A stretch of 38,955 nucleotides of DNA from a virus (taxonomy: Duplodnaviria; Heunggongvirae; Uroviricota; Caudoviricetes), in the IMG/VR virus record IMGVR_UViG_2939127364_000004. The stretch is one strand, 5' to 3'. Below are positions 9,451-31,634 of this stretch, one piece after another. Under the pieces are notes generated by a model. That model did no database searches. It was not told the DNA's origin and saw nothing but the letters and a program-made list of their open reading frames with translations. The translations under genes were made by a program, and so were the position numbers. Each line of letters begins with the position of its first letter. Position 1 is the stretch's first letter.

Positions 9451-9702
9451 TTAGTCCTGATTTTTATCCACCCTGAGTAGTTCGCGCAGAGCAAAGGCAT
9501 CCCCTTTTCTGGCAAGCTTAAACAATGCCGCTCGTAACTCGGCTTCACCTTTCGCTCTGCCCTTACGGATGGCCGCATAAAAATCTGTCATTGCTTCCCG
9601 ATTTTCTTTCAGTCGGTTCAGATCAACATCCAGAACGTCAGCGATTTGTTGTGCAGTCATCCGGCACGCTGCCAGAGACTCGACTTTCGAATACGGAATC
9701 AT
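9451..9702 (-). CDS. Small HTH-like protein (83 aa) directly upstream of terminase small subunit
   Basis: ATG 9702 with GGGGGTGA SD; MTAQQIADVLDVDLNRL helix-turn-helix-like segment; first 21 codons overlap the 3' end of the upstream gene. Confidence 0.4.
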   Translation of the reverse strand: MIPYSKVESLAACRMTAQQIADVLDVDLNRLKENREAMTDFYAAIRKGRAKGEAELRAALFKLARKGDAFALRELLRVDKNQD

Positions 9703-10570
9703 TTGTCACCCCCATTGATATGCAGGGTGTCTTCTTCCTGTATTTTTCGTGAAGGATTTTTACTGCAGCGTTGTTCCAGGTGACCTGATGGTGAATGCGT
9801 TTATGGCTGGCACCCATCAGTGAGATTTTTACGCACGACGGCGCATACATGACGGAGTAAAAACTTTTAACGTAGGTTCCGGAATCCAGATACAGCTCGG
9901 TCATTCCGCCGCTGTTTTTCTGCGTCTGTTTCTGCCCTAACTGGACAGCACCGATCGTCATAAACAATTCACCACAGCGACCGAGATTCGTGTACGTATT
10001 CACATCCTCGTTAATGCGCCCCATGAATGAGAACGGTCGATCAACCGAACAGATAAAGCTGTTCATTGCCTTGCGTTTCACCCACGAAGCATGGCCGCCA
10101 TTGTCACCAAGAAAATCCCCGCCCTGCGACATAGCGATGGAAAGAGCAGGTATTGATTCGTAGTACGCCAGCATTTCAGAAAGGATCGCATCCAGTTTCC
10201 TTATCGGAAAATAGGCCTGGTCATAGTTGCGATCCACCCGAAACTGGAACTCGTGATAATCATCATCGAGCTGAATGAAGTATTTACACCCGACCAGTTT
10301 TGCCAGGTCGAAACAGGCATTACGGGCGTAAAAAATTGAGCGGCGGTCACAGAAATTATCGGCTTCGTCAAAACGACTGGCGATATCGGCTTTGGAAAAC
10401 ACCAGCACCTGTTCACCAAATTCAGCCATGTACTGATTCCGTGTCTTATCTTCATCATCAACAACGATAAAAATTTTCCCGGTATAGCCAGCACGACGCA
10501 ACGTCCGGTAAGTCAGAACTTTGTCCGGTCGCCCGTGAGTCAGAATAAAGGCGCAAAAATCATCACGCAT
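9638..10570 (-). CDS. GT-A-fold-like nucleotide-sugar transferase candidate (310 aa, soluble)
   Basis: ATG at 10570 with perfect AGGAGG SD; motif order FILTHGRP, IVVDDED, IQLDDDY (DXD) at GT-A-like spacing; no predicted TM segments; start overlaps ParB-like stop by 8 nt. Confidence 0.4.
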   Translation of the reverse strand: MRDDFCAFILTHGRPDKVLTYRTLRRAGYTGKIFIVVDDEDKTRNQYMAEFGEQVLVFSKADIASRFDEADNFCDRRSIFYARNACFDLAKLVGCKYFIQLDDDYHEFQFRVDRNYDQAYFPIRKLDAILSEMLAYYESIPALSIAMSQGGDFLGDNGGHASWVKRKAMNSFICSVDRPFSFMGRINEDVNTYTNLGRCGELFMTIGAVQLGQKQTQKNSGGMTELYLDSGTYVKSFYSVMYAPSCVKISLMGASHKRIHHQVTWNNAAVKILHEKYRKKTPCISMGVTNDSVFESRVSGSVPDDCTTNR

Positions 10571-11354
10571 ATTCCTCCTCCTCACCACCATGCATGATCT
10601 CCACCATGCGCTGCGTCATCCGGACAAATCCATTTTCAATAGCCTGCTGATAATCAATGATCACCAGCGCCGACTCCTCGAAAAAACACTGAATTTCAGA
10701 GGGGGCGTGAGCGTAATAGTCCGCAATTCTGCTGAAATTAAACACCGTGTGACGTTCTGCCGCACACAGGAGGAATTTCTCAATATCAGGCTCAAGGGAC
10801 GCCGAACGTATCCGGCTGATCAGCTCCTGAGTTTTCGTATCGTCGTACAGTTCACTGATATCCGGTTTACCGCCCGACGGCTCATAAACAGGCGTATCAA
10901 TTTTCGTCGTATACGGCTCCTCCTCATTTCCTGTACCGGGCAAAACATCCGTCAACAGTTCATCAATTTCTGTCGGGATGAAGCCTGTCAGGGAGACATC
11001 AAAATCAGCATTGATTAGGTCCGACAGCTCCATCCGCAACAGATCTTCATCCCAGCCAGCATTCATCGGCAGGCGATTATCTGCCAGGCGGTACGCCTTT
11101 TTCTGCTCATCCGTCAGGCCAGACAGAACAATGACCGGAACAGAATCCATTTTGAGCATTTCAGCCGCCATAACACGACCGTGACCCGCAATAATTTCGC
11201 CCTTTTCGTCAATCAGCACCGGATTAGTCCAGCCGAATTGCTTAATACTTTCTACCAGTTGTGCCACCTGCTCAGGGCTGTGCGTCCTGGCGTTGTGCGC
11301 ATACGGTGACAATTCTTGTAATGGGCGATAGACTATCTTTAATTTCTCGCTCAT
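10563..11354 (-). CDS. ParB-like nuclease domain protein (ParB/Srx fold N-terminal domain plus uncharacterised acidic C-terminal domain)
   Basis: N-terminal VYRPLQELSPYAHNARTHSPEQVAQLVESIKQFGWTNPVLI ... GHGR is the ParB N-terminal signature; 263 aa. Confidence 0.7.
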   Translation of the reverse strand: MSEKLKIVYRPLQELSPYAHNARTHSPEQVAQLVESIKQFGWTNPVLIDEKGEIIAGHGRVMAAEMLKMDSVPVIVLSGLTDEQKKAYRLADNRLPMNAGWDEDLLRMELSDLINADFDVSLTGFIPTEIDELLTDVLPGTGNEEEPYTTKIDTPVYEPSGGKPDISELYDDTKTQELISRIRSASLEPDIEKFLLCAAERHTVFNFSRIADYYAHAPSEIQCFFEESALVIIDYQQAIENGFVRMTQRMVEIMHGGEEEEYA

Positions 11355-11491: not shown

Positions 11492-12949
11492 TTAGGAGCG
11501 CCAAAAAAAACCTGAAAACAATATAATAACAGGATAAATTTCAAGGCGACCAAGAATCATAGCTATGCACATTAAACATTTTGCAATGTCATTAAGCACT
11601 CCGAATGACGATGCAGTAGCCCCAAAACCTAATCCCATATTATTAATACATGCAGCCACTGTTGCAAATGATGTAAGAAAATCATATCCCATACCATTTA
11701 ACACCAGTATAAAAAACACCGTGAAGAGAGTATAAAGAAAAAAGAAACTCCATACAGACCTCATTACACGATCTGTAACTATCTTCCCTCCTACATTTAC
11801 ACTCAACAACGCTCTGGGATGAGAAAGCTGATTTATCTCGTGTTTGCTTTGTTTGAAAAGTATAAGAAATCGAAGTGACTTAATTCCACCACAAGTTGAA
11901 CCTATACATCCCCCAAAGAAACTTGACAACAGCAAAAACACTATCGTGTGCGTGGGCCAACTTGCATAATCCTGCGTAGCTAAACCATTATCAGTGAGCA
12001 TGGAGCTGGCAAGAAAAAACGAATGAATAAAACTTCCATGCAAGTCATACATACCTATATGCCAGACCTGGAAAGAGGTAACAATGATCACCCCTAAGGC
12101 TATTAACAGAAAGAAACGAAGTTCAATATCTCTGATTAAAGGTTTTATCGTTTTCCTGCTAATAACAATATACCAAAGAGTGAAGTTGAAAGCCGATAGC
12201 AGGGAAAAAGAACCAGCCACCAGCTCAACCAAATAGTTATTAAAATATCCGATACTCTCGCTATGAGTTGAGAAACCACCAAGCGAAACTGTGGAAATCC
12301 CGTGACAAATAGCATCAAACAAAGGCATTCCTGCAAGTCTATAACAGACAATACAAGCAATACCTAATAAAGAATAAGTTATCCACAGTGTCCGTGACGT
12401 ATCGGCCAGGCGGGGAGTGAGTTTGTCATCCTTAAATGGCCCCGGCATTTCTGACTGATAAAGCTTTGCACCACCAATACCCAATAATGGCAATACAGCA
12501 ACCGCCAGAACAATAACTCCTAAACCACCTATAAAATTTAACTGTGACCGATAGTACAAATATGCCCGAGGTAATGAACTAACATCATCAATTACAGTTG
12601 CTCCTGTTGTTGTTATTCCAGAAACCCCTTCAAACAGAGCATCAATGAACGTTAAATTAAGTTCTGAGTCAATCCATAAAGGGAATGCACTAATAACAGA
12701 AAACAAAATCCAAAACATTACAATTATAATAAACCCATCACGGGTACGTAATTGAATGCCAGATTTCTTAGTTGTATACCACGCTCCGCCACCAATGCAA
12801 AAAAATATAACGAAAGTTATAAAGAAAACGAACAGGCTTTTTTCTTTATAAAACAATGCTACAACCATTGGTGGCAACATTGAAAGACTATAGAGCCAAA
12901 CCAGGAACCCACACATATGAGTAACAACTCTTACATGAGATGTATTCAT
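11492..12949 (-). CDS. trkG: Trk-system potassium uptake protein TrkG (prophage moron)
   Basis: 485-aa polytopic membrane protein from ATG 12949 (MNTSHVRVVTHMCGFLVW...), matches recalled Rac TrkG; visibly AT-rich versus flanking phage genes. Confidence 0.9.
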   Translation of the reverse strand: MNTSHVRVVTHMCGFLVWLYSLSMLPPMVVALFYKEKSLFVFFITFVIFFCIGGGAWYTTKKSGIQLRTRDGFIIIVMFWILFSVISAFPLWIDSELNLTFIDALFEGVSGITTTGATVIDDVSSLPRAYLYYRSQLNFIGGLGVIVLAVAVLPLLGIGGAKLYQSEMPGPFKDDKLTPRLADTSRTLWITYSLLGIACIVCYRLAGMPLFDAICHGISTVSLGGFSTHSESIGYFNNYLVELVAGSFSLLSAFNFTLWYIVISRKTIKPLIRDIELRFFLLIALGVIIVTSFQVWHIGMYDLHGSFIHSFFLASSMLTDNGLATQDYASWPTHTIVFLLLSSFFGGCIGSTCGGIKSLRFLILFKQSKHEINQLSHPRALLSVNVGGKIVTDRVMRSVWSFFFLYTLFTVFFILVLNGMGYDFLTSFATVAACINNMGLGFGATASSFGVLNDIAKCLMCIAMILGRLEIYPVIILFSGFFWRS

Positions 12950-13086
12950 ATCTAAATATTCTTTCAATTATAACCACCTTGCTGCAATATTATGATTATA
13001 CTGTATAAAATTTAACTCCTCTTAGATCTTACTTCACTGTTCCTTATGAAACAATCATCAAAATGAATCATATTGTAGTTAAGATT

Positions 13087-14311: not shown

Positions 14312-15217
14312 CTATATTTCCAGACACCTGTTATCACTTAACCCATTACTGGCCCGCTGCCGCAGATATTCCCGTGGCGAGCGATAACCCAGCGCACTAT
14401 GCGGATGCCATTCGTTATAATGCTCGAACGCCTCTGCAAGGTTCTTTGCTGCCGTTAACCCGTCTGGTTTGGGCATGATACTTATGTAGTCACGCTTTAT
14501 CGTTTTCACGAAGCTCTCTGCTATTCCGTTACTCTCCGGACTCCGCACCGCCGTGTTCTTCGGTTCAAGTCCCAACATCCTGGCGAACTGACGTGTTTCA
14601 TTCGCCCGGTAGCATGAACCATTATCCGTCAGCCACTCCACTGGAGACGCCGGAAGCTCGCTGCCAAAGCGGCGTTCCACTGCTCCCAGCATGACGTCCT
14701 GTACTGTTTCACTGTCGAAACCCCCCGTTGTGACCGCCCAGTGCAGTGCCTCACGGTCACAGCAGTCCAGCGCGAACGTGACCCGCAGTTTTTCTCCGTT
14801 ATCACAGCGGAACTCAAACCCGTCAGAGCACCATCGCTGATTACTTTCTTTCACAGCCACTCTGCCGGTATGTGCCCGTTTCGATGGCGGTACAGCGGGT
14901 TTTCGCTCAAGCAACAGCGCATTCTGGCGCATGATCCGGTAAACACGTTTGGCATTGATCGCAGGCATACCATCAAGTTCCGTCTGTCTGCGAAGCAGCG
15001 CCCATACCCGACGATAACCATATGTGGGCAGCTCTCCGATAACATGGTGTATACGGAGAAGCACATCCGTATCATCAGTGTGACGACTGCGGCGGCCATC
15101 CATCCAGTCATCGGTTCGTCTGAGAATGACGTGCAACTGCGCACGCGACACCCGGAGACAACGGCTGACTAAGCTTACTCCCCATCCCCGGGCAATAAGG
15201 GCGCGTGCGCTATCCAC
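14312..15217 (-). CDS. insD: IS2 transposase OrfB (InsD)
   Basis: 301-aa [33 protein letters not shown]..., DDE integrase-type catalytic region. Confidence 0.9.
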
Positions 15218-16323: not shown

Positions 16324-17518
<1,195 letters not shown>

Positions 17519-19895: not shown

Positions 19896-20494
19896 TACGC
19901 AAACTCCAGTAGTTGTGCGGCCACATTTTCAACTTCCTCCTGAGAGGAGAATTTACGGAACAGAATCCAGTTCCACAGCACATTCAGTACAGATTTATAA
20001 ACCTGCTGAAACTCGACTTCGTCCATATTCGCAAAAGCGATGGATTTTGCCCGACGCCCACGGCTACCGTCCGGATAAATATGCTCGGTGTAAAATCCGG
20101 CCTGAATGGTTACCCACTCGCGGAAAGCCTCAAACGACTTTAGCAACGCCGTATCCCGGGTTCTACGAGTCGCAACGGTGTTAAGGTATTGCTCTGCGGC
20201 ATCACTCAGGGCTGGCGTGTGTTCCCGACCAACTGATTCGCACAGGTAATCAACGAAACCAGACAGCAGTTCTCGTTCGCGAGGCGTGATCGCCCCACCG
20301 ACCGGAGTCCAGTAATCGAATCCCAGTTGCAGGAGTTTGAAAAAACGCTTGTGGAATGCGTAGTTACGCACACGCTTAAAGTCTGCGTGTATCCACTCAC
20401 CTATTTTGATTTGATGCAGAAAATCGCAACTCTCCGGCGTCGCCGGGAGAAGTAAACCAGAAGAAGTTTGTTTGACCAGTTGTATATGCGCCAT
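19895..20494 (-). CDS. DUF1367 / YbcN-like Nin-region protein (199 aa)
   Basis: ORF with ATG 20494, translationally coupled (TAATG) to downstream gene; family assignment from recollection. Confidence 0.45.
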   Translation of the reverse strand: MAHIQLVKQTSSGLLLPATPESCDFLHQIKIGEWIHADFKRVRNYAFHKRFFKLLQLGFDYWTPVGGAITPRERELLSGFVDYLCESVGREHTPALSDAAEQYLNTVATRRTRDTALLKSFEAFREWVTIQAGFYTEHIYPDGSRGRRAKSIAFANMDEVEFQQVYKSVLNVLWNWILFRKFSSQEEVENVAAQLLEFA

Positions 20495-20767
20495 TTCTCA
20501 ATCTCTCGATGGCGCAGTGCAGCAGATGCCAGTTGTTCAGGCTGACGTATAAAGTATAAATAAACTGGTTCCAGTGTAAAGCCCCCACCTTAATGGAATA
20601 AAAACCAAACAACAGATTGCTGGGATACAAACAACGCTTATTATTAAAAGCGGTTAAACAAATTAAATTTTAATGTTATGCAAATTTGTCAGATCACCAT
20701 AATATCTCATTTGAAAACCGCTGAAATAACAATCCTATCAGGATTAATCATATTAAGGTGAGTAAAT

Positions 20768-20854
20768 ATGGAAAACAACAAATCTGCACATTACGCTCCT
20801 TTTTTATCTGTAATACTTTTTGTTTTTTGCTGTGTATGGGCATTATTTTTATAA
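20768..20854 (+). CDS. Candidate 28-aa hydrophobic small protein (MENNKSAHYAPFLSVILFVFCCVWALFL), not in ORF track
   Basis: ATG 20768 preceded by AAGGTGAG SD at 7-nt spacing; possible sigma70 promoter TTATGC-17-ATAATA about 50 bp upstream; single predicted TM helix; convergent with hokD. Confidence 0.3.
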   Translation: MENNKSAHYAPFLSVILFVFCCVWALFL

Positions 20855-20962
20855 AAATATTCACAGATAAAATAAACTCGCCGAATCAGGTTAAGTGTGG
20901 GTGCGTTGAGGATGCCTGACACATCAGAGGCGGCGAGGGATTTCTCCCTCGCCTAGTCACTC

Positions 20963-21118
20963 TTACTCCTCAGGTTCGTAAGCTGTGAAGACAGCGACCT
21001 CCGTCTGACCGGTTCGGATTCGCACCTCGCAGAGGTCTTTCCTCGTTACCAGTGCCGTCACTATGACGGTTAAACAGATGACAATCAGTGCGACTAACAT
21101 CGCCTTTTGCTGCTTCAT
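20963..21118 (-). CDS. hokD: Hok/Gef-family type I toxin HokD (51 aa)
   Basis: MKQQKAMLVALIVICLTVIVTALVTRKDLCEVRIRTGQTEVAVFTAYEPEE; stable GGCGAGGGA-tttc-TCCCTCGCC hairpin 10 nt past the stop at 20932-20953. Confidence 0.85.
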   Translation of the reverse strand: MKQQKAMLVALIVICLTVIVTALVTRKDLCEVRIRTGQTEVAVFTAYEPEE

Positions 21119-21838
21119 AGCCTGCTTCTCCTTGCCTTCCGGCGCGTAAGAGGCTAACCTACATGTGCAAAGCATGAAATTGGCCTCAGATTAATGTTAA
21201 GCGTCTTGCCGGACGCGTAATGTTATCTGGGGCTTTTCTCTATCTGCCTTTGGTGTTCATGCCTGAGGCAGATAGCCTCAAGCACCCGCAGCAATTCTAC
21301 TTAACTCCCGTCACCTCGCCAATATAAAATCAATCAGAAAGGCGATCCATAAGAACAACAGCAAGACAATAAATTGCCATTACAGCCGCAATAGCTAGCG
21401 CACATTTGAGAACCAGCACGACAACCTCCTGTATTGGACGTACACCAGTTCTGATAAATATGAGGCTGTCTCATCATTGATTCAATATAACTATTGGGTA
21501 TAGTTTCTGTGATTTTGTTCTGTAGAAATGGAACACAACAACCAGTCACCACCAGCACTTCTTTAAATACGCCAAGTCCGACGCAAGCTAACCTTCTAGT
21601 CCGCTTTGAGCGAGGAGCGGACCAAACCCGGCCAACTGACTCTTAAAGGGGCCGCAGGAATTTTTCGTCTGAACTTTCGAAGCTCCTCTCCCTGAAGACA
21701 GAAAACTTCTGTGTGCTGTGGGAATATTGAATCTTTGCCTTAGATATAAATAATTTTATCCCGCCTGAAGTTTACATTATTTTATTTATCTGTTTTTCTA
21801 AATCAGACTGCACTCCTTACTTAAATCAGGAGCCAGTC

Positions 21839-23038
21839 ATGCCATTTGTTATTTATGTGTTTACTATCAGTGCCTTTGCGCTCGGACTCGCGGAATTTGT
21901 CCCCATTGGGCTGACAGACGTTATGGCTCAGGGGTTGTGTGTGGGTGTGGAGCAGACCGGGGCAGCGGTTACAACCTATGCACTGGGGGCAACGTTCGCG
22001 GCACCCGTACTGTCTGCGCTGACAGCAAGCTGGAGCCGGAAAAATGTAATGCTTACAACTGCCGTTGTGTTTACTGCCGGTAGTCTGGCGGCCGCGTTTG
22101 CAGCCACATTACCTCAGCTCCTGTTAGCGCGGTTCATTGCTGGTCTGGGACACGGCCTGTTTCTGGCTGCGGCATCCAGTACCGCAGCTCGTCTTGCTGG
22201 ACCGGGTAAAGCAGGCAGAGCGGTGGCTGTGGTATTTGGTGGCTTTACTCTGGCGATGGCAATCGGCGTACCGCTGAGTACATGGTTGGGGGGGGTGGTC
22301 TCATGGCGTCCAGTTCTCGGCGCTATTGCCGCTTTTGGCGCGTTCGGATTCCTTGGACTGTTGTTCGGTATGAAAGATCCCGTACGCAGCGTGCCCGGTG
22401 AACATAGTGACTCAGCAATGCAGAATATCGGCATGCTGTTTAACCGTAAGTTGCTGGCCGGCGCGCTGGTTACGGTGCTGGCGTATGCAGGCTCGTTTAC
22501 GGATTACACCTTTATCGCACCTATTCTGACGCAGGTGACAGGGGTTACCGGAGCAACGGTGAGTCTGTTTATGCTGGTTTACGGTATTACAGCTGCGGTA
22601 GGTAATATTCTTGGTGGGAAACTTACCGACAGCATGGGGGTTAATCGTGCCAATATACTCATCATTAGCGGCATTGTTGTTGTCGTGCTTGGTATGTGGC
22701 TGCTGTCATCCTCACCGGTGAGCATGGGCATTCTGGTTGCGCTGCTGGGTATGGTGACATTTGCCGCAGTGCCGGCACTGCAGGCCCGTCTGATTGGTGT
22801 CGCTGAGCAACATGCTCCTCATGCGCATGGTGTTGCTGCCGGCCTGAATATTGCGGGCTTCAACTCAGGTATAGCGCTGGGATCAGTACTGGGCAGCATT
22901 ACTATAAGCCACGCCGGTATCGTGTATACCGGTATCAGCGGTGCGATTGTTTCTCTGCTCGGCCTGCTGTTGCTGCTTGCACAAATCCGTCGCAGCCACA
23001 GTCGTAAATTTCAACAGGTTAAAATCGTAGGCCAGTAA
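21839..23038 (+). CDS. MFS transporter (12-TM, 399 aa)
   Basis: AGGAG SD; hydrophobic 12-helix pattern, Gly/Ala-rich, central cytoplasmic loop. Confidence 0.8.
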   Translation: MPFVIYVFTISAFALGLAEFVPIGLTDVMAQGLCVGVEQTGAAVTTYALGATFAAPVLSALTASWSRKNVMLTTAVVFTAGSLAAAFAATLPQLLLARFIAGLGHGLFLAAASSTAARLAGPGKAGRAVAVVFGGFTLAMAIGVPLSTWLGGVVSWRPVLGAIAAFGAFGFLGLLFGMKDPVRSVPGEHSDSAMQNIGMLFNRKLLAGALVTVLAYAGSFTDYTFIAPILTQVTGVTGATVSLFMLVYGITAAVGNILGGKLTDSMGVNRANILIISGIVVVVLGMWLLSSSPVSMGILVALLGMVTFAAVPALQARLIGVAEQHAPHAHGVAAGLNIAGFNSGIALGSVLGSITISHAGIVYTGISGAIVSLLGLLLLLAQIRRSHSRKFQQVKIVGQ

Positions 23039-23049
23039 AGGGAGGTTAT

Positions 23050-23742
23050 ATGCTTACCCGTGAAAATATGCTTAATGGCACATTTGTCAGGGTGCATGAA
23101 GCGCTGCTCCCGGCGAATATGCTCTGGGACGCTGAAAAAATACGCGCATCAATGAACTCTACTCTGGAGGAGCGCCCGACGGGTGCTCCTGTCTGGATAT
23201 TTGCCTACGGGTCATTGATGTGGAATCCCGTGCTGGCGATTGAAGAAATGCAACGGGCCCGTCTGAAAGGATGGCAGCGCAGTTTCTGCATTCGTTTGAT
23301 ATCCGGACGAGCGACTCCTGATGTCCCCGGCAGGATGTTATCGCTCGACGAAGGTGGAATTACCGAAGGTATTGCGTTCAGACTGCCGGAATCGACTCTT
23401 ATTAATGAGCTGGAAATTGTCTGGACGCGCGAGATGATAACCGGTCTTTACCGTCCGGTCTGGGCAGACGTTTCGCTAGGAAACGGTGAGGAAATTCAGG
23501 CGCTGGCTTTCGTATCAGACAGACTGCATCCGCATTATGAACAGGACAATCTTACAGCGACCGTAGCGTTGAGCATCGCATCTGCCCGTGGAGACATTGG
23601 CACGAATGCAGATTATGTATGGAAACTGCAGGCCACTCTGGGTGCGTTGGGAATACGGGATGATTACGTGAGTGAACTGGCCCTTGCTCTGCATGAGGCT
23701 CCCTGTAACGATAAACTTCATCAGCGAGGCGCTTCACTATGA
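23050..23742 (+). CDS. ChaC-family gamma-glutamylcyclotransferase-like protein
   Basis: GGAGG SD; WIFAYGSLMWNP (YGSL motif) and overall similarity to ChaC; 230 aa. Confidence 0.7.
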   Translation: MLTRENMLNGTFVRVHEALLPANMLWDAEKIRASMNSTLEERPTGAPVWIFAYGSLMWNPVLAIEEMQRARLKGWQRSFCIRLISGRATPDVPGRMLSLDEGGITEGIAFRLPESTLINELEIVWTREMITGLYRPVWADVSLGNGEEIQALAFVSDRLHPHYEQDNLTATVALSIASARGDIGTNADYVWKLQATLGALGIRDDYVSELALALHEAPCNDKLHQRGASL

Positions 23743-24620
23743 GCCATCTGAGCCATCTGCGAACGTTTCTTGAGGCCTATCGCTCTGGCTCCTTTTCAAA
23801 GGCGGCAGAACTACTGGGCATCACTCAGCCCGCGGCGTCACAGCATATCCAGTCTCTTGAGACTCTGGTTGGTAAGCGTCTGTTTATCAGGCAGGCCAGA
23901 GGCGTGACGGCAACCGAAGCTGCGGATGAGCTTGCCCGCTCAGTTTCACCCTTCATTGATGGTCTGGAAGAAAAGCTGTCCTCTTTCCGGTCAGGCTCTG
24001 TACGCGGGGGAACAATTAATCTGGCAGGACCGCCAGATTTTATTCATTCCCGGCTTGGGACAGTAATGGCTCCACTAATGAAGGAGGGGTATCGCCTACG
24101 CTTTCATACCGGCAATAAGCAACGTATTTATTCCCTTTTGCATGACGGGAGCGCCGATCTCGCTGTTACCGCATCTATGCCTGATGACCGTCTGTACGGC
24201 TATGCACATCTACTGACTGAACGCATGCTCCTTGTTCATGCTCCCGCCATGTCAGAGATCATCGGATCAGAACCTGGTGCTGAAACGCTTGCCTCATTAC
24301 CGCTGATTGCTTATGACGAAGAGTTGCCACTGATTAGAGCGCTCTGGGCCTCCATGTTTCAGAGAGCCCCTGAGATGCAGGCTACATTCACCATTCCGGA
24401 TTTACGTATTATCCGCGACTTGGTCTGTGACGGCCACGGGTGGACAGTGCTGCCGGATTATCACTGTGACAATGACCTGAAAAGTGGTCGCCTGATTTCA
24501 GTGACACCTGCAGACCTCGCTCCGACTAATCATCTTTATCTGGTCTGGAACAAAAGGACGGCTAATAACAGCCGAACCGCCTATGTTCGGGATTACATTC
24601 TTAAAACGTTTCCGCGTTGA
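23739..24620 (+). CDS. LysR-type transcriptional regulator
   Basis: N-terminal HTH LRTFLEAYRSGSFSKAAELLGITQPAASQHIQSLE; start overlaps ChaC stop (ATGA). Confidence 0.85.
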   Translation: MSHLSHLRTFLEAYRSGSFSKAAELLGITQPAASQHIQSLETLVGKRLFIRQARGVTATEAADELARSVSPFIDGLEEKLSSFRSGSVRGGTINLAGPPDFIHSRLGTVMAPLMKEGYRLRFHTGNKQRIYSLLHDGSADLAVTASMPDDRLYGYAHLLTERMLLVHAPAMSEIIGSEPGAETLASLPLIAYDEELPLIRALWASMFQRAPEMQATFTIPDLRIIRDLVCDGHGWTVLPDYHCDNDLKSGRLISVTPADLAPTNHLYLVWNKRTANNSRTAYVRDYILKTFPR

Positions 24621-24750
24621 TGTTTGAAACGGATGATTGGCGATGCGTATCATAAGTTACGTATGTCCGCTTCTGGCACAAAGCAGACGCCCACTCTCAC
24701 GCGAATGCTTTGCCCTTGACTTGCCAACAACCGTATCGCTTGCTCCGCAA

Positions 24751-26043
24751 CTATGGTTTTTTATTAGAATCTTCGCCACTAAATAAATTATAATAAATTG
24801 ATTTTATTAGATATCTGTCAGAATCTATATGGTCAGCACGAGTAGCATGCTCTAATGTTTCAAATGCTAGGGTTTGTGCGGCTTCAGCAAAAATTCCAGG
24901 CCAACCCTTACTCAGCATCGACAGTCCTTTAAGTACCCTTATCTGAATTTCCCTCATACTGGCACCATCGCGCGCAACAGGTGAGAAAAAGTCTTCAAGT
25001 AGATCGTTATTCTGAAGTGGTGCAACATGTACAGAAGGATATTTCACTTCTATTTCATCAGATTTATTCTGCGCGTAAGCGGAAAGTATACGTACACCTC
25101 TGCCAATGACATCAATGGCGGTTCCTGGATCGTTCACTGCGGGGGAAAGGGCTCGGCAGGCTATTTCGGCCATGACGCTAAGACAAAATCGGGGGTCCTG
25201 AGCAAATGAACGTACATCCGAGACAATAATCGTCTCAAGTAAATCGGTGCTGATTGATGACTCCTGGCCCTGACTCAGGTACAAAACTGGCGTGGACGGA
25301 TGTATGAAACTGCCCGGCTGCGCCACGAGGTATACATGACGGGGATCATTGGTCAGCAGCTTGCTGAGTTTCACCATATCAACATATTCAACATAGCCAA
25401 TCTTTTTCGGATAAACTGCAACCGTTCCTTTCGGCTGTTCATTGTTCTCAAGCCATGGATATCCGCCGAGACAGGGATTTCTTGCTCTCGCAATAAATGT
25501 TTCGATGGCCGCCTGTTCTACTTTTGCCGTTGTCTCACCAACCCTCCCCAGAGAGGTCAAATGCTGTATCCAGCGAAGCAATGTGATGAGGATTAAGGCA
25601 ATGACAACCAGTGTTACAATGAATAAAATGACTCTCCCCCTTTCTCCATAAGCTCCCATATTGAGGGCAATAATCCCTACCAGACTGAAGAGAAAAGAAC
25701 CGATGAAGGTGGCCAGTACATTTTGTGTGGTGACGTCTTCAACAACTAAACGAGTAGCTCTGGGAGTCACATTAGTAGTGGCTGAACCGTAGGCTGTGAC
25801 CATGATGCTCAGCGAAAATGTGGTCACTGCCAGCATACTCGATGCCAGTATGTTCAGAATGTTATCGACTGCTTCCGCACCAACCTTCACGGAAACCGAC
25901 TCAGGTATCATTGATTTAAAAAGAATTGATAAAAGGGCCGTTATTATTGCGACAATTGCGAATAACGTTGCCCTGAACCATAGTTTTTTAAATGTCTGCT
26001 TCAGCATCCATTTCCAGCGTGAAATCATTCTGCATTCCCTCAT
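24751..26043 (-). CDS. DUF2254-family membrane protein (N-terminal TM domain plus soluble C-terminal domain)
   Basis: 430-aa ORF with 4-5 N-terminal TM helices; family from recollection; alternative start at 26028 has better SD. Confidence 0.5.
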   Translation of the reverse strand: MRECRMISRWKWMLKQTFKKLWFRATLFAIVAIITALLSILFKSMIPESVSVKVGAEAVDNILNILASSMLAVTTFSLSIMVTAYGSATTNVTPRATRLVVEDVTTQNVLATFIGSFLFSLVGIIALNMGAYGERGRVILFIVTLVVIALILITLLRWIQHLTSLGRVGETTAKVEQAAIETFIARARNPCLGGYPWLENNEQPKGTVAVYPKKIGYVEYVDMVKLSKLLTNDPRHVYLVAQPGSFIHPSTPVLYLSQGQESSISTDLLETIIVSDVRSFAQDPRFCLSVMAEIACRALSPAVNDPGTAIDVIGRGVRILSAYAQNKSDEIEVKYPSVHVAPLQNNDLLEDFFSPVARDGASMREIQIRVLKGLSMLSKGWPGIFAEAAQTLAFETLEHATRADHIDSDRYLIKSIYYNLFSGEDSNKKP

Positions 26044-26063
26044 ATTGCAGCCGGGATAAATAA

Positions 26064-26084
26064 ATGCCGCCTCTGTGGCGGCAT
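26064..26084 (-). terminator. Intrinsic terminator downstream of BCCT transporter gene
   Basis: Minus strand ATGCCGCC-acaga-GGCGGCAT followed by TTATTTAT. Confidence 0.5.
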
Positions 26085-26091
26085 GTTGCTG

Positions 26092-28095
26092 TTAACGAAC
26101 CAGATGCAGGAAGTGCAGGTGTTTTTCGTACTGGTCCAGTATGTCATTAATCAGCTGTTCCTGATTCCAGCCCATTACATCATAATTTTGGCCGCCCTCT
26201 TTGAGATAGACTTCAGCGCGATAATATCGATGTTGTTCACTCTGCTGCTCATCATTATCCAGCGCAGCGAGCGCGAAGGTCGGTGAGTTATACCCGCGAA
26301 GCCTCACTTCATATATATAATTCAGCTCGTTGCCCAAATCGACTTCAAGGCGAATACGATCCTCGGCGGCGTCACTGATGTGGCTTATCGTTCCCTGCTT
26401 GTTAAGTTCCTCCTGAACCAGCGTCATGGCGGGTTGGATAATGTCGTCCATAAAACGTTTCACAAGAGAGCGCTTCGGCAAATACGCGATATTGCGTAAC
26501 CTTCTCTGCCAGGGAATTGGGTTACGTGCAGCCGTAGGAGCAATAGTCGCCATGCTAAGGCTTTCACGCTTGGTCAAATCCCGACGCAGGGCTTTTAACA
26601 GTCCGTATATGGATATTAATAAGATAACTGAGAAGGGCAATGCACTCGCTATCGTTACGGTTTGCAACGCACTCAGCCCCCCTGCGATCAGCAGGGCAAT
26701 AGCAACAACGCCCATGAGCGATGCCCAGAAAATTCGCTGCCAGACGGGCGTGTTTGCCACCCCACCTGATGCCAGAGTATCCACAACCATTGCCCCCGAA
26801 TCAGCAGACGTTACAAAGAAGACGATGACCATCGCCATTGCAATGAATGACAGCACGGAAGAGAACGGGAAATGCTCCAGGAAATTAAACAGGGCAAGCG
26901 CAACATCCTGCTGAACGGTATTGGCGAGGTCAGTGGCGCCCTGGTTCATGATGAGATAGATGGCGCTGTTTCCAAACACCGTCATCCACATGAGCGTAAA
27001 GCCGGCGGGAACAAACAACACGCCAGTCACGAACTCACGAATTGTCCTGCCGCGGGAAACGCGTGCAATGAACATACCTACAAACGGCGACCATGAAAGC
27101 CACCATCCCCAGTATAATAATGTCCAGCCCCCCAGCCAGTTGCTCGACTTGGGTTCATACGCGTAAAGGTTGAACGTTTTACTCACCAGTTCCGACAGAT
27201 AACCACCCGTATTTTCCACAAATGACTTCAGCAGAAGCACAGTGGGACCCAGGCACAAGACCAGCGCCAGGAGCAACACCGCCAGGCCCAGATTAAGCTC
27301 AGACAGGATGCGTATTCCCTTGTCCAGGCCGGACACCACCGAAATCGTCGCTAACCCCGTGATGACCACGATCAAAATGACCTGTACCGTTTCATTGATG
27401 GGCACGCCGAAAAGATGGTTCAAACCGGCATTCACCTGCAATACACCGTAACCCAGCGATGTTGCAACGCCAAAGACAGTGCCTATCACGGCGAAGATAT
27501 CAACCGCGTGGCCTATAGGCCCGTAAATGCGATCGCCGATAATGGGATAGAGCGCAGAACGCAGCGTTAAAGGCAGACCGTGACGGTAACTGAAAAAGGC
27601 CAGAATCAGCGCCACGATGGCATAAATTGCCCATGCGTGCAGACCCCAGTGGAAGAACGTCAGGCGCATGGCTTCCTTCGCTGCCGCAACGGTCTCTGGA
27701 GTGCCGACAGGTGGCGAAAGATAATGCATCACAGGTTCGGCAACGCCAAAGAACATCAGGCCGATCCCCATCCCTGCCGAAAAAAGCATCGCGAACCAGG
27801 AGTGGTAGCTGAAATCAGGCTGCGCATGGTCTGGGCCCAGCTTTATATCACCGTAACGTGAGAGTCCAAGGAACGTGACGCTCAGTAAAATCAGGGCCAC
27901 AGCAAGTATGTAGAACCAGCTGGCATTCGTGAAGATTTGTTGCTGAAGTAGTTTAAAATTTTTGTCGGCGACATCCGGGAATACGGCGGCAAAGGCGACA
28001 AGAAGGAAAATTAGCAAAGCAGATGTAAAGAATACCGCTTTGTTAATCTGGCTTGTAGACTTCTTTGGGGTTGTATCATTTTCACTCATAATCAT
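26092..28095 (-). CDS. BCCT-family transporter, BetT-like (667 aa with long cytoplasmic C-terminal tail)
   Basis: Conserved BCCT blocks (WTLLYWGWWLSWSPFVGMFIARVSRGRTIREF); length and C-terminal extension as in choline transporter BetT but sequence clearly distinct from E. coli BetT. Confidence 0.85.
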   Translation of the reverse strand: MIMSENDTTPKKSTSQINKAVFFTSALLIFLLVAFAAVFPDVADKNFKLLQQQIFTNASWFYILAVALILLSVTFLGLSRYGDIKLGPDHAQPDFSYHSWFAMLFSAGMGIGLMFFGVAEPVMHYLSPPVGTPETVAAAKEAMRLTFFHWGLHAWAIYAIVALILAFFSYRHGLPLTLRSALYPIIGDRIYGPIGHAVDIFAVIGTVFGVATSLGYGVLQVNAGLNHLFGVPINETVQVILIVVITGLATISVVSGLDKGIRILSELNLGLAVLLLALVLCLGPTVLLLKSFVENTGGYLSELVSKTFNLYAYEPKSSNWLGGWTLLYWGWWLSWSPFVGMFIARVSRGRTIREFVTGVLFVPAGFTLMWMTVFGNSAIYLIMNQGATDLANTVQQDVALALFNFLEHFPFSSVLSFIAMAMVIVFFVTSADSGAMVVDTLASGGVANTPVWQRIFWASLMGVVAIALLIAGGLSALQTVTIASALPFSVILLISIYGLLKALRRDLTKRESLSMATIAPTAARNPIPWQRRLRNIAYLPKRSLVKRFMDDIIQPAMTLVQEELNKQGTISHISDAAEDRIRLEVDLGNELNYIYEVRLRGYNSPTFALAALDNDEQQSEQHRYYRAEVYLKEGGQNYDVMGWNQEQLINDILDQYEKHLHFLHLVR

Positions 28096-28429
28096 TTATT
28101 CCATTAATTAAATCCGCACTGGATAGAAGGTACTACCTCTCACAGAGTAGCAAAGTTCAACTGGCTATGCGGGGTTAATCGGAATGCATGGTGGAATGAG
28201 TGCCGATACAAATCATCCTATATTCTAAGGAGTTTTAAGTTACTCAGCCTGCCAATTACTGGGGCATTTAATTTGTATGATCTGTATCAAAGCTGGGATA
28301 TAAGTTAAGTGAAGTATATTAGGCACGAATTACCAGCGTCTGCTCTTGGCACAAAGCGGACAACCACGCTAGCTCTACCCTGTGCCACAAAATGTCAATT
28401 TGCATCTGAACTAATGCACTTTAATCTCG

Positions 28430-28852
28430 TCACTTCAATAAATACCGAACATCCCCCTGATAAAACGACAATATGCGCTGCATAACTTCGCTCTTCCGGC
28501 ACTCGCGACAGATTATGTTTAGGCGACTGTCGTAGCGACGTATTTCTCCGTCAGGTAATGACCAGATAAGGTCCGGATCAACCACAACCGGTTTCTTCAG
28601 CTTTGCCCTCGATAATTTTTTGCGGGCATTTTGCCAGTCTTTACGAGCCTGTTCAGACGGGAATAACCCGTAGCCAGAATTGTATACATCGCCACTGGCA
28701 ACCAGCTCTCTGGCCAGAACGCTCATCAGATATCTTGTTGCCCCAGTTTTAGCTTCCAGTTGTCGTAACGTCTCGCGCCCACTCTGGCGTACGAGTTCAA
28801 GAACCTGCCCTTTAATTTTTTCCCGCTCTTCTTGTGTAAAAACTTTTGCCAC
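28430..28852 (-). CDS. Hypothetical protein (140 aa) downstream of replication initiator; possibly replication-associated
   Basis: GTG start 28852 with AGGAGG SD; basic, possible winged-helix N-terminus; occupies the position where a helicase loader is normally found. Confidence 0.4.
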   Translation of the reverse strand: MAKVFTQEEREKIKGQVLELVRQSGRETLRQLEAKTGATRYLMSVLARELVASGDVYNSGYGLFPSEQARKDWQNARKKLSRAKLKKPVVVDPDLIWSLPDGEIRRYDSRLNIICRECRKSEVMQRILSFYQGDVRYLLK

Positions 28853-28892
28853 AAGCCCTCCTGAAAATTACCTCATGACCAGAAATTAACAC

Positions 28893-29963
28893 TTACCCCC
28901 TGAAGCCCGGCGGAATTTCGTTATCCGGTTCAGAAATATGATTCACACAACGCTGGTTGTTCGTGCCGCTTACCGGGAGCAACCAGGGGTTCTCAAAATT
29001 CCGGTCCGGTCCAAAAAACGTCGTCGCTCGCTGAACAAATTCCGTTCCCGTTTTCCCGGTAGCCGCCAAGTATCTTGCGTAACGCCTCACGCCATCCAGC
29101 ATGGCCTCTGGTGGCACCCCCTCGCGTAATCTGGCCTTCCAGGCACTGAAAGCGGATTTCTTCGGGTTTGCCCCAGCACGCAACGGGTACTCCCGCCAGA
29201 CCTGTTCGAACACATCCGGATAATCCACTCGTCCCACAGACTGCCCGGTGTTTTCCGGGACTACCCGATCGGCTTCCCGCTGAATGGCGGAATCGGCTTC
29301 AGGCTGCTGCAGTTGGTGTGATTGCTCCGCCCTTGCGGTCATCACCTGCTGCACAGCGCCCGAATCGGCTTTCAGCGCATACGCTGAATCGGCTTCCGGT
29401 GTCGTGCCTGCTGGCTGACCAAGATTGACGGTCTGAACATCCCCTGCCTGGTTCGTGGCGTTTTTTACGCCATGGACCATAGTGTTTTGATCTTCTTGAT
29501 CTGTATCTTTATCTGTATCTTTATCTGTCGTGACTCGTCGTGACATGTGCGTGACATTTCGTGACGCGCCGTGACAATCGCCATTTTGTTCCCGCTTTCT
29601 TTCCCTCTCTCGCTGCGCCCTCTTGCGCTCTGCAGGAGATTTTGCGGTTTGCGAAATATTGCCGTTGTCCTCTTTAAGCACCTGGCGTTTTTCCCATCCA
29701 GTGATTAAATCACCATCAAGTACCCGCCCCTGCATCGTCTGCAAAATTGAATCAATTACCTCTTCTGTCACGTCGAGCGCACTTGCCAAATCTTCTGTCG
29801 TGACATCAATGTGACCTCGCGTGACATTTCGTGACGCGCTCACCAGGAGGTGGATATACACTGCCATCACTGTTGCAATTGGCTGTCCTGACACCCTGGC
29901 AATTGTTCGCCACTTAGGGTCATTTGGCATGTCATGCCATAATCTGAGCCAGGCGTTAGCCAT
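28893..29963 (-). CDS. Lambda O-like replication initiator with internal origin iterons
   Basis: ATG 29963 (AGAGGTGA SD); two GTGAC iteron clusters inside the coding sequence; synteny after cro/cII-like genes. Confidence 0.6.
   Translation of the reverse strand: MANAWLRLWHDMPNDPKWRTIARVSGQPIATVMAVYIHLLVSASRNVTRGHIDVTTEDLASALDVTEEVIDSILQTMQGRVLDGDLITGWEKRQVLKEDNGNISQTAKSPAERKRAQRERERKREQNGDCHGASRNVTHMSRRVTTDKDTDKDTDQEDQNTMVHGVKNATNQAGDVQTVNLGQPAGTTPEADSAYALKADSGAVQQVMTARAEQSHQLQQPEADSAIQREADRVVPENTGQSVGRVDYPDVFEQVWREYPLRAGANPKKSAFSAWKARLREGVPPEAMLDGVRRYARYLAATGKTGTEFVQRATTFFGPDRNFENPWLLPVSGTNNQRCVNHISEPDNEIPPGFRG
29500..29575. repeat. Origin-like iteron cluster 1: 12-bp direct repeat TCTGTATCTTTA x2.5 followed by five GTGAC repeats at 10-11 bp spacing
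   Basis: GTGAC at 29530, 29540, 29551, 29561, 29571. Confidence 0.6.
29800..29839. repeat. Origin-like iteron cluster 2: four GTGAC repeats at 10-11 bp spacing; contains a 20-bp exact copy of part of cluster 1
   Basis: GTGAC at 29800, 29811, 29821, 29831; CGTGACATTTCGTGACGCGC present at 29550-29569 and 29820-29839. Confidence 0.6.
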
Positions 29964-30034
29964 ACTCACCTCTTTTGATACCGAATCTTTTTACTCACAA
30001 ATTGCCGGAAGTGATCCGGTATGAATATTGCGAG

Positions 30035-30460
30035 TCAATGCACAGCCACAATATTTCCTGCAGGGCCACCACGATTCATCTGGTTGAAACCAGCGATCGC
30101 CACTGCGACAAAATCATCAGCGTCTCTCACCAGTCGTTCCCGCGTCTCCACTAGTTCCCGAAAATAGGCTGAGCTATGGCTGCGCATTCGGGCCACCAGC
30201 AGAGGTGGCATTGCTTTTTCGATAGCTGGTAACAACGCCTGAATTTTTTCAACTGCATCAGGGGTGTCTTTCTCTACCCAGCGGAAAATTTTCTGGGTAT
30301 TGCGAGCCAGGGCTTCCGGATGGCTGTCGTCATACAGTTCTGGGAACGTCATACCCAGTTCAAAATAAGCCCTGGTTATTTCAGCTGCCGGAACTTTTTC
30401 ACCGTCCGGATGCGCCCAGGCATTCATCGCCATGCGGATGTGTTCATGCTTGATTTTCAT
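30035..30460 (-). CDS. ydaT: YdaT-like protein (cII position, 141 aa)
   Basis: MKIKHEHI... N-terminus and position after Cro-like gene as in Rac ydaS-ydaT; 17-nt overlap with upstream gene. Confidence 0.5.
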   Translation of the reverse strand: MKIKHEHIRMAMNAWAHPDGEKVPAAEITRAYFELGMTFPELYDDSHPEALARNTQKIFRWVEKDTPDAVEKIQALLPAIEKAMPPLLVARMRSHSSAYFRELVETRERLVRDADDFVAVAIAGFNQMNRGGPAGNIVAVH

Positions 30461-30725
30461 GAATCAAGCTCCTAGAAAGTGGTTGTGTTAACATTTTGGT
30501 ATCTTCCAGCTCGGGCCAAATATTCATCCAATCAAAAGGCCTTAGTTGCTGACGTGTAACTTCACCATTACTGGCTCGCTCAATAAGGACACATAACGAT
30601 GCCCCTAACACTTGACCTTTACTCAATGCCTTTCTTAGATAACCGATGCTGGTACCACACTCGCATGCAAACATACGCTGTTCATCTGACGAAAGAGAAT
30701 TGAGAAATATTCTTAATTCTTCCAT
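30444..30725 (-). CDS. ydaS: Cro-like HTH regulator (YdaS family)
   Basis: AAGGAG SD; 93 aa; divergent from repressor across operator-containing intergenic region. Confidence 0.5.
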   Translation of the reverse strand: MEELRIFLNSLSSDEQRMFACECGTSIGYLRKALSKGQVLGASLCVLIERASNGEVTRQQLRPFDWMNIWPELEDTKMLTQPLSRSLIHENQA

Positions 30726-30754
30726 AGCTACTCCTTAGTAAACACAGCAAAGAA

Positions 30755-30830
30755 TACCCATAGGTAAACAAAAGTCAATACCCACAGGTTGTTTACCTTG
30801 CAGTAATCGCATCTATTATTTACCTATGGA
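30755..30830. promoter_or_regulatory. OR-like operator cluster: three copies of 12-bp near-palindrome TACCCATAGGTA in the divergent repressor/cro intergenic region
   Basis: TACCCATAGGTA 30755-30766, TACCCACAGGTT 30779-30790, TTACCTATGGAC ~30819-30830; TATTAT -10 hexamer directly before repressor ATG. Confidence 0.5.
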
Positions 30831-31245
30831 CAAATATGAATTTAGACGACAGCAACTCATCAAAATTCGTGATGAGAAATGCGATGGTAAAGCGGTTAAC
30901 GTGGCCAGAAAGATCGGGCGCGAGCCTTCTTATGTATCAAGAATGTTGTACCCAGAGGGGAAAAAGGGAAAAAAACGGATCGCTGATGATATGGTGGAGA
31001 TTATCGAAGAGTCCTTTGGGTTACCCCGGGGATGGATGGATGGTATCGTTTCATCATCAACGAACACAGCCTCCAGTTATGAAACAAGGGTTCTAACGCC
31101 ACGACAACGTATTTTTTTAGATCTCTTAGACGAACTGCCAGAAAGTGAAGCGGATAACTTATTAAAAACTCTTGAAGAGAAAAAACAGTATTACAATATG
31201 ATCTACGAAGAAATCCGTAAAAAGAAAGCACAAAACGCATCATAG
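30826..31245 (+). CDS. racR: cI-like prophage repressor, probably translated from a leaderless mRNA
   Basis: 139-aa ORF with HTH-like GKAVNVARKIGREPSYVSRML; no SD, ATG immediately follows a -10-like TATTAT; divergent from cro-like gene. Confidence 0.5.
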   Translation: MDKYEFRRQQLIKIRDEKCDGKAVNVARKIGREPSYVSRMLYPEGKKGKKRIADDMVEIIEESFGLPRGWMDGIVSSSTNTASSYETRVLTPRQRIFLDLLDELPESEADNLLKTLEEKKQYYNMIYEEIRKKKAQNAS

Positions 31246-31287
31246 CTCACCAAACAACTAGTCACCAGTTAAGACACCGCAAAAAGT

Positions 31288-31324
31288 TACCCATGGGTAT
31301 TTACTTTTTAAATACCTATGGGTA
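31288..31324. promoter_or_regulatory. OL-like operator pair downstream of repressor gene
   Basis: Perfect palindrome TACCCATGGGTA at 31288-31299 and TACCTATGGGTA at 31313-31324, 25 bp centre to centre. Confidence 0.5.
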
Positions 31325-31499
31325 TCCTTCTTTTCATACCAACCCACCCCGCCCCACAGAATGCAGGGCAATACTTCGAGTTACCAGGCAGTGGTCAGGG
31401 GTTAAGTAGCCAGCCCGAGGCGTAAGAACATGACGGCGGGATTCAAATTTTGCAGTGCAGCAGTTAGTTCCGCCACCCGGCGTTAAGGGGAGAGATAAG

Positions 31500-31634
31500 A
31501 TGGTGCATTACGAAGTAGTTCAGTATTTGATGGATTGTTGCGGTATCACTTACAACCAGGCTGTGCAGGCTTTACGCAGCAACGACTGGGATCTCTGGCA
31601 GGCAGAAGTCGCTATACGTAGCAACAAGATGTGA
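31500..31634 (+). CDS. ydaG: Small early-left protein YdaG-like (44 aa)
   Basis: ATG 31500 with GGGGAGAG SD; size and order match Rac ydaG as recalled. Confidence 0.45.
   Translation: MVHYEVVQYLMDCCGITYNQAVQALRSNDWDLWQAEVAIRSNKM

Follow-up and report, generated by a model that had tools for sequence, protein, structure and literature searches.

The DNA analysed here, a stretch of 38,955 nt from IMG/VR virus record IMGVR_UViG_2939127364_000004 (the whole of which is called the window below), is a Rac-type lambdoid prophage of Escherichia coli, and our subject is a pair of genes that it carries, one for a transporter of the BCCT family, referred to as BetU for the reasons given below, and one for an inner-membrane protein of the DUF2254 family. 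The gene pair is already known, as the betU osmoprotection module published as cargo of Tn6062, and the remaining interest lies in the DUF2254 protein and in the palindrome-bounded cassette hotspot in which the pair is found. On balance, the best overall explanation is probably that the known module is present here as a mobile cassette, and that DUF2254 is independent of BetU and co-selected with it.

The betU-DUF2254 locus

The first-pass annotation of this DNA, made from the sequence alone, described two co-oriented genes 48 bp apart with a terminator-like hairpin between them, and both features were recovered. The two open reading frames (ORFs) lie on the minus strand exactly where that annotation had placed them (Table 1), separated by 48 nt (26044-26091) in the ORF list, or by 63 nt when the starts annotated by RefSeq on identical DNA are used. 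The hairpin begins 7 nt past the betU stop codon and consists of an 8-bp GC-rich stem followed by a U-rich tail; the spacer reads TAA-cagcaac-ATGCCGCC-acaga-GGCGGCAT-TTATTTAT, in which TTATTTAT is the U-rich tail. A hairpin is kept at the same position, with compensatory changes in the stem, in the diverged pairs of Leclercia, Pluralibacter, Pseudocitrobacter and a metagenome-assembled genome (MAG). For example, C-G pairs have changed to T-A on both arms in Pseudocitrobacter, and clean T-runs stand behind the hairpin in the Leclercia and MAG pairs.

A minus-strand scan with the sigma-70 consensus found nothing that resembles a promoter, either ahead of betU or in the spacer between it and DUF2254. 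In addition, an Rfam scan of positions 20000-31500 (E <= 1) returned only hok/sok, with nothing in the betU-DUF2254 spacer or at the palindromes described below. Because the DUF2254 start lies 20-40 nt past the hairpin, with no room for a promoter, DUF2254 would most likely be made by partial read-through of the betU terminator, at a level below that of BetU.

Table 1. Positions of the gene pair, its boundaries and other features of the window.
Feature	Position	Strand	Comment
betU (probable identity), BCCT-family glycine/proline-betaine transporter	26092..28095	-	667 aa; likely start 28089 (RefSeq, identical DNA)
DUF2254 inner-membrane protein gene	24751..26043	-	430-aa ORF; likely start 26028 (RefSeq, identical DNA), giving 425 aa
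GC-rich hairpin with U-rich tail	26056..26084	-	5-nt loop; read as intrinsic terminator or attenuator; stem-loop at 26064-26084 in terminator scan
Region upstream of betU, within the cassette	28096..28337	-	242 nt; conserved in plasmid pPO125
Palindrome GTCCGCTTCTGGCACAAAGCAGAC	24665..24688		Boundary of the betU cassette, DUF2254 side; divides off the neighbouring cassette; homology with pPO125 and Kluyvera starts here
Palindrome GTCTGCTCTTGGCACAAAGCGGAC	28338..28361		Boundary of the cassette, betU side; abuts prophage backbone on the DUF977 gene side
Third palindrome copy	21599..21622		Different loop, inverted orientation; outer cargo boundary, hokD side
Neighbouring cassette: MFS, ChaC-like gamma-glutamylcyclotransferase, LysR	21839..24620	+	3,066 nt; context, outside the betU unit
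hok/sok type I toxin-antitoxin	21113..21287	-	Rfam sok, 116 bits
IS5-type transposase gene (DDE_Tnp_1)	16356..17372	+	Lysis/late region
IS3-family transposase gene (rve)	14312..15217	-	Lysis/late region
trkG	11492..12967	-	TrkH family, 484 bits
TET-associated glycosyltransferase gene and ParB N-terminal-domain gene	9638..10591 and 10563..11354	-	PF20691 (glycosyltransferase); adjoining genes between terminase and trkG

Identity of the transporter

The transporter had been described in the first-pass annotation as BetT-like in its length and C-terminal tail yet clearly not the canonical betT, and as lacking betIBA, and this description is borne out. The protein matches the Pfam BCCT family (PF02028) with 661.7 bits against a cutoff of 27, over residues 21-506 and profile positions 1-485 of 485, as well as the NCBIfam BetT subfamily model NF007399 with 752 bits against a cutoff of 695; the latter, which K-12 BetT passes as well, is of the type 'subfamily', not equivalog, and does not assert a shared substrate. 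With the BetT of E. coli K-12, the choline:H+ symporter of betTIBA, it has in common a BCCT core (12 transmembrane helices, residues ~21-506) and a long cytoplasmic C-terminal domain of BetT type (~160 aa), and the two align end to end, tail included, to the last residue. Their identity is only 42%, however, and betI, betB and betA are absent from the window, whereas in K-12 those genes adjoin the canonical betT elsewhere on the chromosome. Because of this low identity and the missing betIBA, we regard the gene as a paralogue of betT; the high identity and betIBA linkage expected of an E. coli betT orthologue were not found, and a plain BetT orthologue, which would have undercut the first-pass reading, is not what lies here.

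The positive identification comes from Tn6062. The transporter is identical at 651 of 665 residues (98%) to the copy in an IS1-flanked pair on a Salmonella Typhi IncHI1 plasmid, and the DUF2254 protein at 418 of 425 residues (98%) to the product of the second gene of this IncHI1/Tn6062 unit; gene order, spacing and hairpin are also the same. The Tn6062 unit was reported to carry "two putative transporters", SPAP0105 and SPAP0106, the transporter being named betU and SPAP0105 being its companion, and a cloned 3,405-bp fragment with the two genes allowed growth of S. Typhi in 0.8 M NaCl (Holt et al., 2011; PMC3139670). The 3' part of a primer from that study, IS1056-03, matches the window exactly at 24761-24780; the second Tn6062 primer has no match in the window within 3 mismatches, which fits the ~6% divergence of the window allele described below. 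Judged by sequence identity, therefore, the transporter is very likely BetU, through a link that runs by way of the Tn6062 copy and not the original HU734 sequence. The setting differs, as the Tn6062 pair is flanked by insertion sequence (IS) IS1, whereas here no IS1 adjoins the pair, the element that carries it is a Rac-type prophage, and 24-nt palindromes mark its boundaries. The IS1 flanks of a composite transposon, lacking beside the pair in the window, are present in L084.

BetU has been reviewed as betaine specific and BetT as choline specific (Wood, 2015; PMC4411257). Taking activity and salt tolerance from the literature, BetU would import glycine betaine and proline betaine at high external osmolality, and the first-pass suggestion of osmoprotectant or quaternary-amine uptake agrees with published work, in which BetU is a betaine importer and the pair gives salt tolerance. 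The closest solved structure is 8ybq, a BetT-type protein (E 3.9e-193, residues 7-667), and BetP of Corynebacterium glutamicum is matched over the core (E ~1e-97). By analogy with these homologues, which suggest its likely fold, trimeric state and regulation by the C-terminal tail, BetU would presumably form a trimer, be coupled to an ion and respond to osmotic activation, its long cytoplasmic tail at the C-terminus serving for regulation. BetP itself lacks the long BetT-type tail.

Distribution, alleles and genomic neighbourhoods

The betU gene is present, over at least 80% of its length, in 1,931 of 5,426 complete E. coli genomes (35.6%), and full-length DUF2254 in 1,360, never without betU. 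This figure fits the incidence of about one third that is reportedly given in the abstract of Ly et al. (2004), the paper on BetU of uropathogenic E. coli. In about 30% of the E. coli betU carriers DUF2254 is truncated or split by an IS while betU is full length; truncation of DUF2254 by IS3 and insertion of IS100 beside an intact betU are common, and explain part of the gap between the two counts. The pair also occurs on 1,461 plasmids, mostly conjugative Klebsiella plasmids, and is intact in ~95% of plasmid copies. Its contexts elsewhere thus include a position between IS1 copies (Tn6062), Klebsiella conjugative plasmids, an IncY plasmid and Kluyvera. Both proteins already belong to PHROGs families, annotated only as 'unknown function', and no phage GenBank record was found with the cargo, the flanks alone being matched.

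The window allele differs by ~6% at the DNA level, with nearly all changes synonymous, from the common allele of chromosomes, Tn6062 and Klebsiella plasmids. Intact copies of both genes are under purifying selection, with ratios of nonsynonymous to synonymous substitution (dN/dS) of 0.02-0.03 for betU and ~0.1 for DUF2254. Synonymous divergence (dS) between the window and the common allele is 0.33 for betU and 0.08-0.15 for DUF2254, about four-fold apart, and among the matches in E. coli genomes most of those to betU are 90-95% identical and most of those to DUF2254 95-99%. The dS gap and the differing identity bands indicate, therefore, that the two-gene block is a recombinational mosaic.

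The association of the two families was examined in both directions. In the forward direction, a scan with a DUF2254 alignment, taking one genome per species, provided the best 80 loci (47-93% identity), in which BCCT genes were located by tblastn. A co-oriented BCCT gene lies within 145 nt of DUF2254 in 13 of these loci; the remaining 67, which include DUF2254 genes of Buttiauxella, Pantoea and Mangrovibacter that are 63-73% identical to the one in the window, have no adjacent BCCT gene. In nine of the 13 paired loci, which belong to Kluyvera, Serratia, Buttiauxella, Leclercia, Pluralibacter, Pseudocitrobacter and one MAG, the block is the one found here and its BetU is 86-98% identical; the other four are independent, at ~50% protein identity (Pantoea eucrina, Aureimonas, an Aurantimonadaceae MAG and Agrobacterium). 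The BCCT gene stands upstream of DUF2254 in the Enterobacteriaceae and Agrobacterium, and downstream in P. eucrina and the Aurantimonadaceae, Aureimonas included; adjacency of DUF2254 with a BetT-type BCCT is found in at least four separate arrangements. All of the adjacent BCCTs are of the long BetT/BetU type, and short BCCTs occur in the 80 loci only at a distance.

In the reverse direction (tblastn, 4-5 kb), none of seven BetU orthologues sampled from other Enterobacterales, at 80-89% identity, has a DUF2254 neighbour (Mangrovibacter, Pantoea sp. IMH, Serratia liquefaciens, Xenorhabdus nematophila, Klebsiella aerogenes, Salmonella Saintpaul and Dryocola). Pantoea sp. IMH carries the betU orthologue and a DUF2254 gene on one contig, ~118 kb apart. 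The check that the first-pass annotation had set for itself, conserved co-occurrence of the BCCT and DUF2254 families, therefore largely fails, and what stands is a non-random adjacency that recurs in several gene orders and lineages.

The DUF2254 protein and its possible role

The first-pass annotation assigned the partner to an uncharacterised family of membrane proteins, and the protein indeed matches DUF2254 (PF10011) with 310.6 bits against a cutoff of 28.8, over residues 20-374 and profile positions 3-366 of 368. A K/R-rich N-terminal tail is followed by four hydrophobic helices and a cytoplasmic domain, part alpha/beta and part helical, which contains the invariant motifs QDPRF and SPxxNDPGTA. 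Conservation peaks at 0.84-0.95 in the polar-rich second transmembrane helix (TM2), the loop that follows it and TM3, and reaches 0.84 in the helices of the QDPRF...SPxxNDPGTA region, a pattern more in keeping with a functional site inside the membrane than with a mere anchor. In the AlphaFold model the predicted local distance difference test score is 80.5 for the whole protein and exceeds 90 in its C-terminal domain. A Foldseek search of this model against the PDB gave a best E of 0.09, with matches that are artefacts of helical repeats, and a profile search of PDB sequences gave no match even at E 10. In the literature, DUF2254 is noted only as a membrane family that AlphaFold predicts to be knotted (PMC11184937).

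Across the 80 loci, the commonest clustered neighbour of DUF2254 is a BCCT gene, followed by genes for NhaA, ClC, CPA1 Na+/H+ exchangers and TrkH. These five transporter families account for 26 adjacent matches in ~160 neighbour slots, versus 12 in the rest of the +/-10 kb. Several Pseudomonas loci (L054, L059, L074, L076, L036, L053) have the order TrkH-DUF2254-ClC or NhaA-DUF2254(-ClC), and look like small ion-homeostasis clusters. Since BetT-type adjacency arose in several lineages and with differing gene order, and since DUF2254 genes elsewhere adjoin Na+/H+, K+ and Cl- transporters, a looser functional tie between DUF2254 and salt-stress transporters is plausible. It is tempting to go further and suggest, tentatively, that DUF2254 has a role of its own in monovalent-ion or osmotic homeostasis, independent of BetU, because of its conserved polar-rich TM2-TM3 and cytoplasmic motif pair and because BCCT, NhaA, CPA1, ClC and TrkH neighbours recur across the Proteobacteria. 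Perhaps it acts as a channel, a transporter or a sensor, which is our best guess, and it would then be selected together with betU, as both would help under salt stress.

A different explanation is that DUF2254 is a pure hitch-hiker, with a function unrelated to osmolytes or ions, and that it adjoins betU only because a single ancestral two-gene block became a mobile cassette, of which many copies were then spread. The nine paired loci that are the same mobile block are in keeping with this, as are its movement in one piece, with palindromes or IS elements at the ends, the partly separate gene histories implied by the roughly four-fold gap in dS, and the frequent loss of DUF2254. Hitch-hiking would not, however, readily account for the independent adjacencies, in different gene order and at ~50% identity, of P. 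eucrina, the Aurantimonadaceae and Agrobacterium, nor for the shared theme of NhaA, CPA1, ClC and TrkH among other DUF2254 neighbours, nor for purifying selection on the intact copies, and we consider it unlikely.

The first-pass annotation had instead proposed that DUF2254 could be an accessory subunit of the uptake system, which would make it a dedicated accessory or regulatory subunit of BetU that, for example, binds the C-terminal tail and tunes activity, stability or osmotic set-point. In its favour, each of the 13 paired loci has its two genes close together and in one orientation, every adjacent BCCT is of the long type while nearby short BCCTs are not adjacent, and the pairing exists in at least four arrangements, by separate origin or rearrangement. 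In addition, purifying selection acts on DUF2254, which in E. coli is never found without betU, and the great majority of plasmid copies keep the pair intact. Against a subunit stand the seven BetU orthologues from other genera, none of which has a DUF2254 neighbour, the 67 of 80 DUF2254 genes without an adjacent BCCT gene, many of which adjoin unrelated ion transporters, the disruption of DUF2254 beside a full-length betU in nearly a third of E. coli carriers, and the conserved terminator between the genes. In addition, the molecule names of the matched BCCT structure entries list the transporter alone, and no solved BCCT structure has been deposited, by these names, with an extra subunit. 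The conserved adjacency expected of a two-component uptake system is thus not what the genomes show, and a dedicated subunit of this kind seems to us rather improbable. Because a BetU orthologue usually has no DUF2254 beside it, and because betU is kept in many E. coli whose DUF2254 is broken, we are fairly confident that DUF2254 is not an obligate subunit of BetU.

Several points nevertheless weigh against our preferred explanation of an independent, co-selected DUF2254. The construct of Holt et al. (2011; PMC3139670) had both genes cloned together, and the sufficiency of betU alone would follow from its stand-alone orthologues only. The pair is also intact down to 67% DUF2254 identity (Leclercia, Pluralibacter and Pseudocitrobacter) as well as in most plasmid copies, and such retention would fit a modulatory partner too. 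Regarding the ionic role, the five transporter families were picked after the data had been viewed and several of the loci are from related Pseudomonas, so that the enrichment can be taken only in a qualitative sense; none of the five families is nearby in 54 of the 80 DUF2254 loci; and no solved relative that could support a channel or sensor was found by fold or by sequence.

That the transporter is simply the choline transporter BetT, feeding choline to the chromosomal BetBA pathway, is very improbable: the BetT architecture shared over its full length, the score above the NCBIfam BetT cutoff and the annotation of plasmid copies speak for it, but identity to E. coli BetT is only 42%, the model is for a subfamily and not an equivalog, the specificity reported for BetU is betaine and not choline, the Dryocola orthologue of BetU adjoins a proVWX-like betaine ABC system, and E. 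coli that carry betU would be expected to keep betT-betIBA, which was observed here only for K-12. Labels for betU differ between records: plasmid copies are named 'choline BCCT transporter BetT', chromosomal copies 'BCCT family transporter', and some ENA entries give 'Glycine betaine transporter'. The plasmid label arises because the NF007399 subfamily cutoff is passed, and it conflicts with the published substrate of BetU; automated annotation thus names many betU copies 'choline transporter BetT' against a betaine-specific literature.

A palindrome-bounded cassette hotspot

The pair lies in a 6.7-kb cargo region, from a DUF977 (ydaW-like) gene to hokD, that it shares with MFS, ChaC-like and LysR genes. 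On one side of it are the integrase, RecE, RecT, SieB, the immunity and replication genes and the DUF977 gene, and on the other hok/sok, DUF1367, DUF1133 (Q-like), the lysis genes, trkG, and the terminase, portal and coat genes; hok/sok lies just outside the cargo region. A 24-nt palindrome, GTCYGCT-N10-AGCRGAC, occurs three times in the window, where 0 copies would be expected by chance, and its copies bracket two units, one of 3,066 nt with the MFS, ChaC and LysR genes and one of 3,673 nt (3.7 kb) with DUF2254 and betU. Homology to the window begins and ends at the palindromes in two contexts unrelated to each other, the IncY plasmid pPO125 (99.9%) and two Kluyvera genomes (90%), and the palindromes are decaying in the Kluyvera genomes, in the O104:H4 island and in a Klebsiella plasmid. 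The betU-DUF2254 pair would therefore appear to move as one palindrome-bounded cassette.

The MFS-ChaC-LysR cassette is absent from the plasmid and Tn6062 copies of the betU pair. We considered its LysR gene as a possible regulator of betU and rejected it, as it is part of the neighbouring cassette and is missing from the plasmid, Tn6062 and O104:H4 copies. The MFS protein of this cassette has its best match to chloramphenicol-efflux proteins of Cmx/CmrA type, far below the model cutoff, and its gene is frameshifted in strain NT1F31.

The palindrome is not confined to this prophage. In a scan of IMG/VR it was found in more than 119 prophage contigs, and in 33 loci with both backbone flanks these run directly up to the palindromes, while the intervening DNA varies. 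Spacings from palindrome to palindrome recur at 1,216, 1,466, 1,707, 1,801, 2,179, 2,489, 3,066 and 3,673 nt, and a conserved C-A-A-Y usually precedes the palindrome. The cargo at this hotspot includes glyoxalase, NUDIX plus HAD, an FRG-domain protein, a CAP12/Pycsar-type TIR protein with a GNAT acetyltransferase, MFS-ChaC-LysR, betU-DUF2254, and proteins without a family match. PADLOC found no defence-family match among the five cargo proteins of the window, and no integron integrase or HUH transposase was found beside the palindrome site. The Rac prophage of K-12 has no copy of the palindrome, and ydaW is there followed directly by rzpR and trkG. Literature searches on the palindrome sequence, and on lambdoid, moron, palindrome and hotspot, found nothing relevant.

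This palindrome-bounded hotspot is the most unusual thing found, and it is a lead. Integron attC cassettes and hairpin-bounded units of REP/PATE type likewise exchange varied gene sets at one site and are bounded by short imperfect palindromes, an analogy that concerns the boundaries only and claims no membership. They differ in that attC sites are longer than the 24-nt palindrome, and the cassettes here hold a single gene or several, which may point either way, and some include regulators of their own. Perhaps the palindrome marks a previously undescribed system of cassette exchange in Rac-type lambdoid prophages at a fixed DUF977-hokD site, and DUF2254 is a new inner-membrane ion channel, transporter or ionic-strength sensor that stands beside salt-stress transporters; as a joint proposition this is doubtful. 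Were it to hold, units of one to several genes could be swapped at the site, and may also leave for plasmids and chromosomes, taking their palindromes along. Short-homology exchange of RecET type, or an enzyme that recognises the hairpin, are possible means of such exchange.

The success of the H58/PST6 typhoid clone has been connected with betU/Tn6062, a laterally spread osmotolerance determinant. DUF2254 always accompanies betU in mobile contexts and was contained in the published osmotolerance construct. Packaging between palindromes, if confirmed, would describe how cargo is shuffled between phages, plasmids and chromosomes.

Other features of the prophage

Like betU, the trkG gene of Rac is a laterally acquired osmotic-stress transporter gene carried as prophage cargo, and in the window it lies ~13 kb from betU on the same element. 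It differs in standing beside the lysis genes, at another position, and in having no palindrome boundaries. The title of the 2004 paper by Ly et al. reportedly names betU and trkG together as laterally acquired osmoregulatory transporters. Most of trkG falls within the 1-kb bin 12001-13000, where the GC content dips to 0.375. In the database protein P0049, DUF2254 is fused to TrkH, presumably through a deletion between the two genes.

Although terminase, portal and coat genes are present, the prophage may be defective, because transposase genes of the IS3 family and of IS5 type lie in its lysis/late region. Finally, the gene for a TET-associated glycosyltransferase (TAGT) adjoins one with a ParB N-terminal domain, and this pair may be a DNA-modification module.

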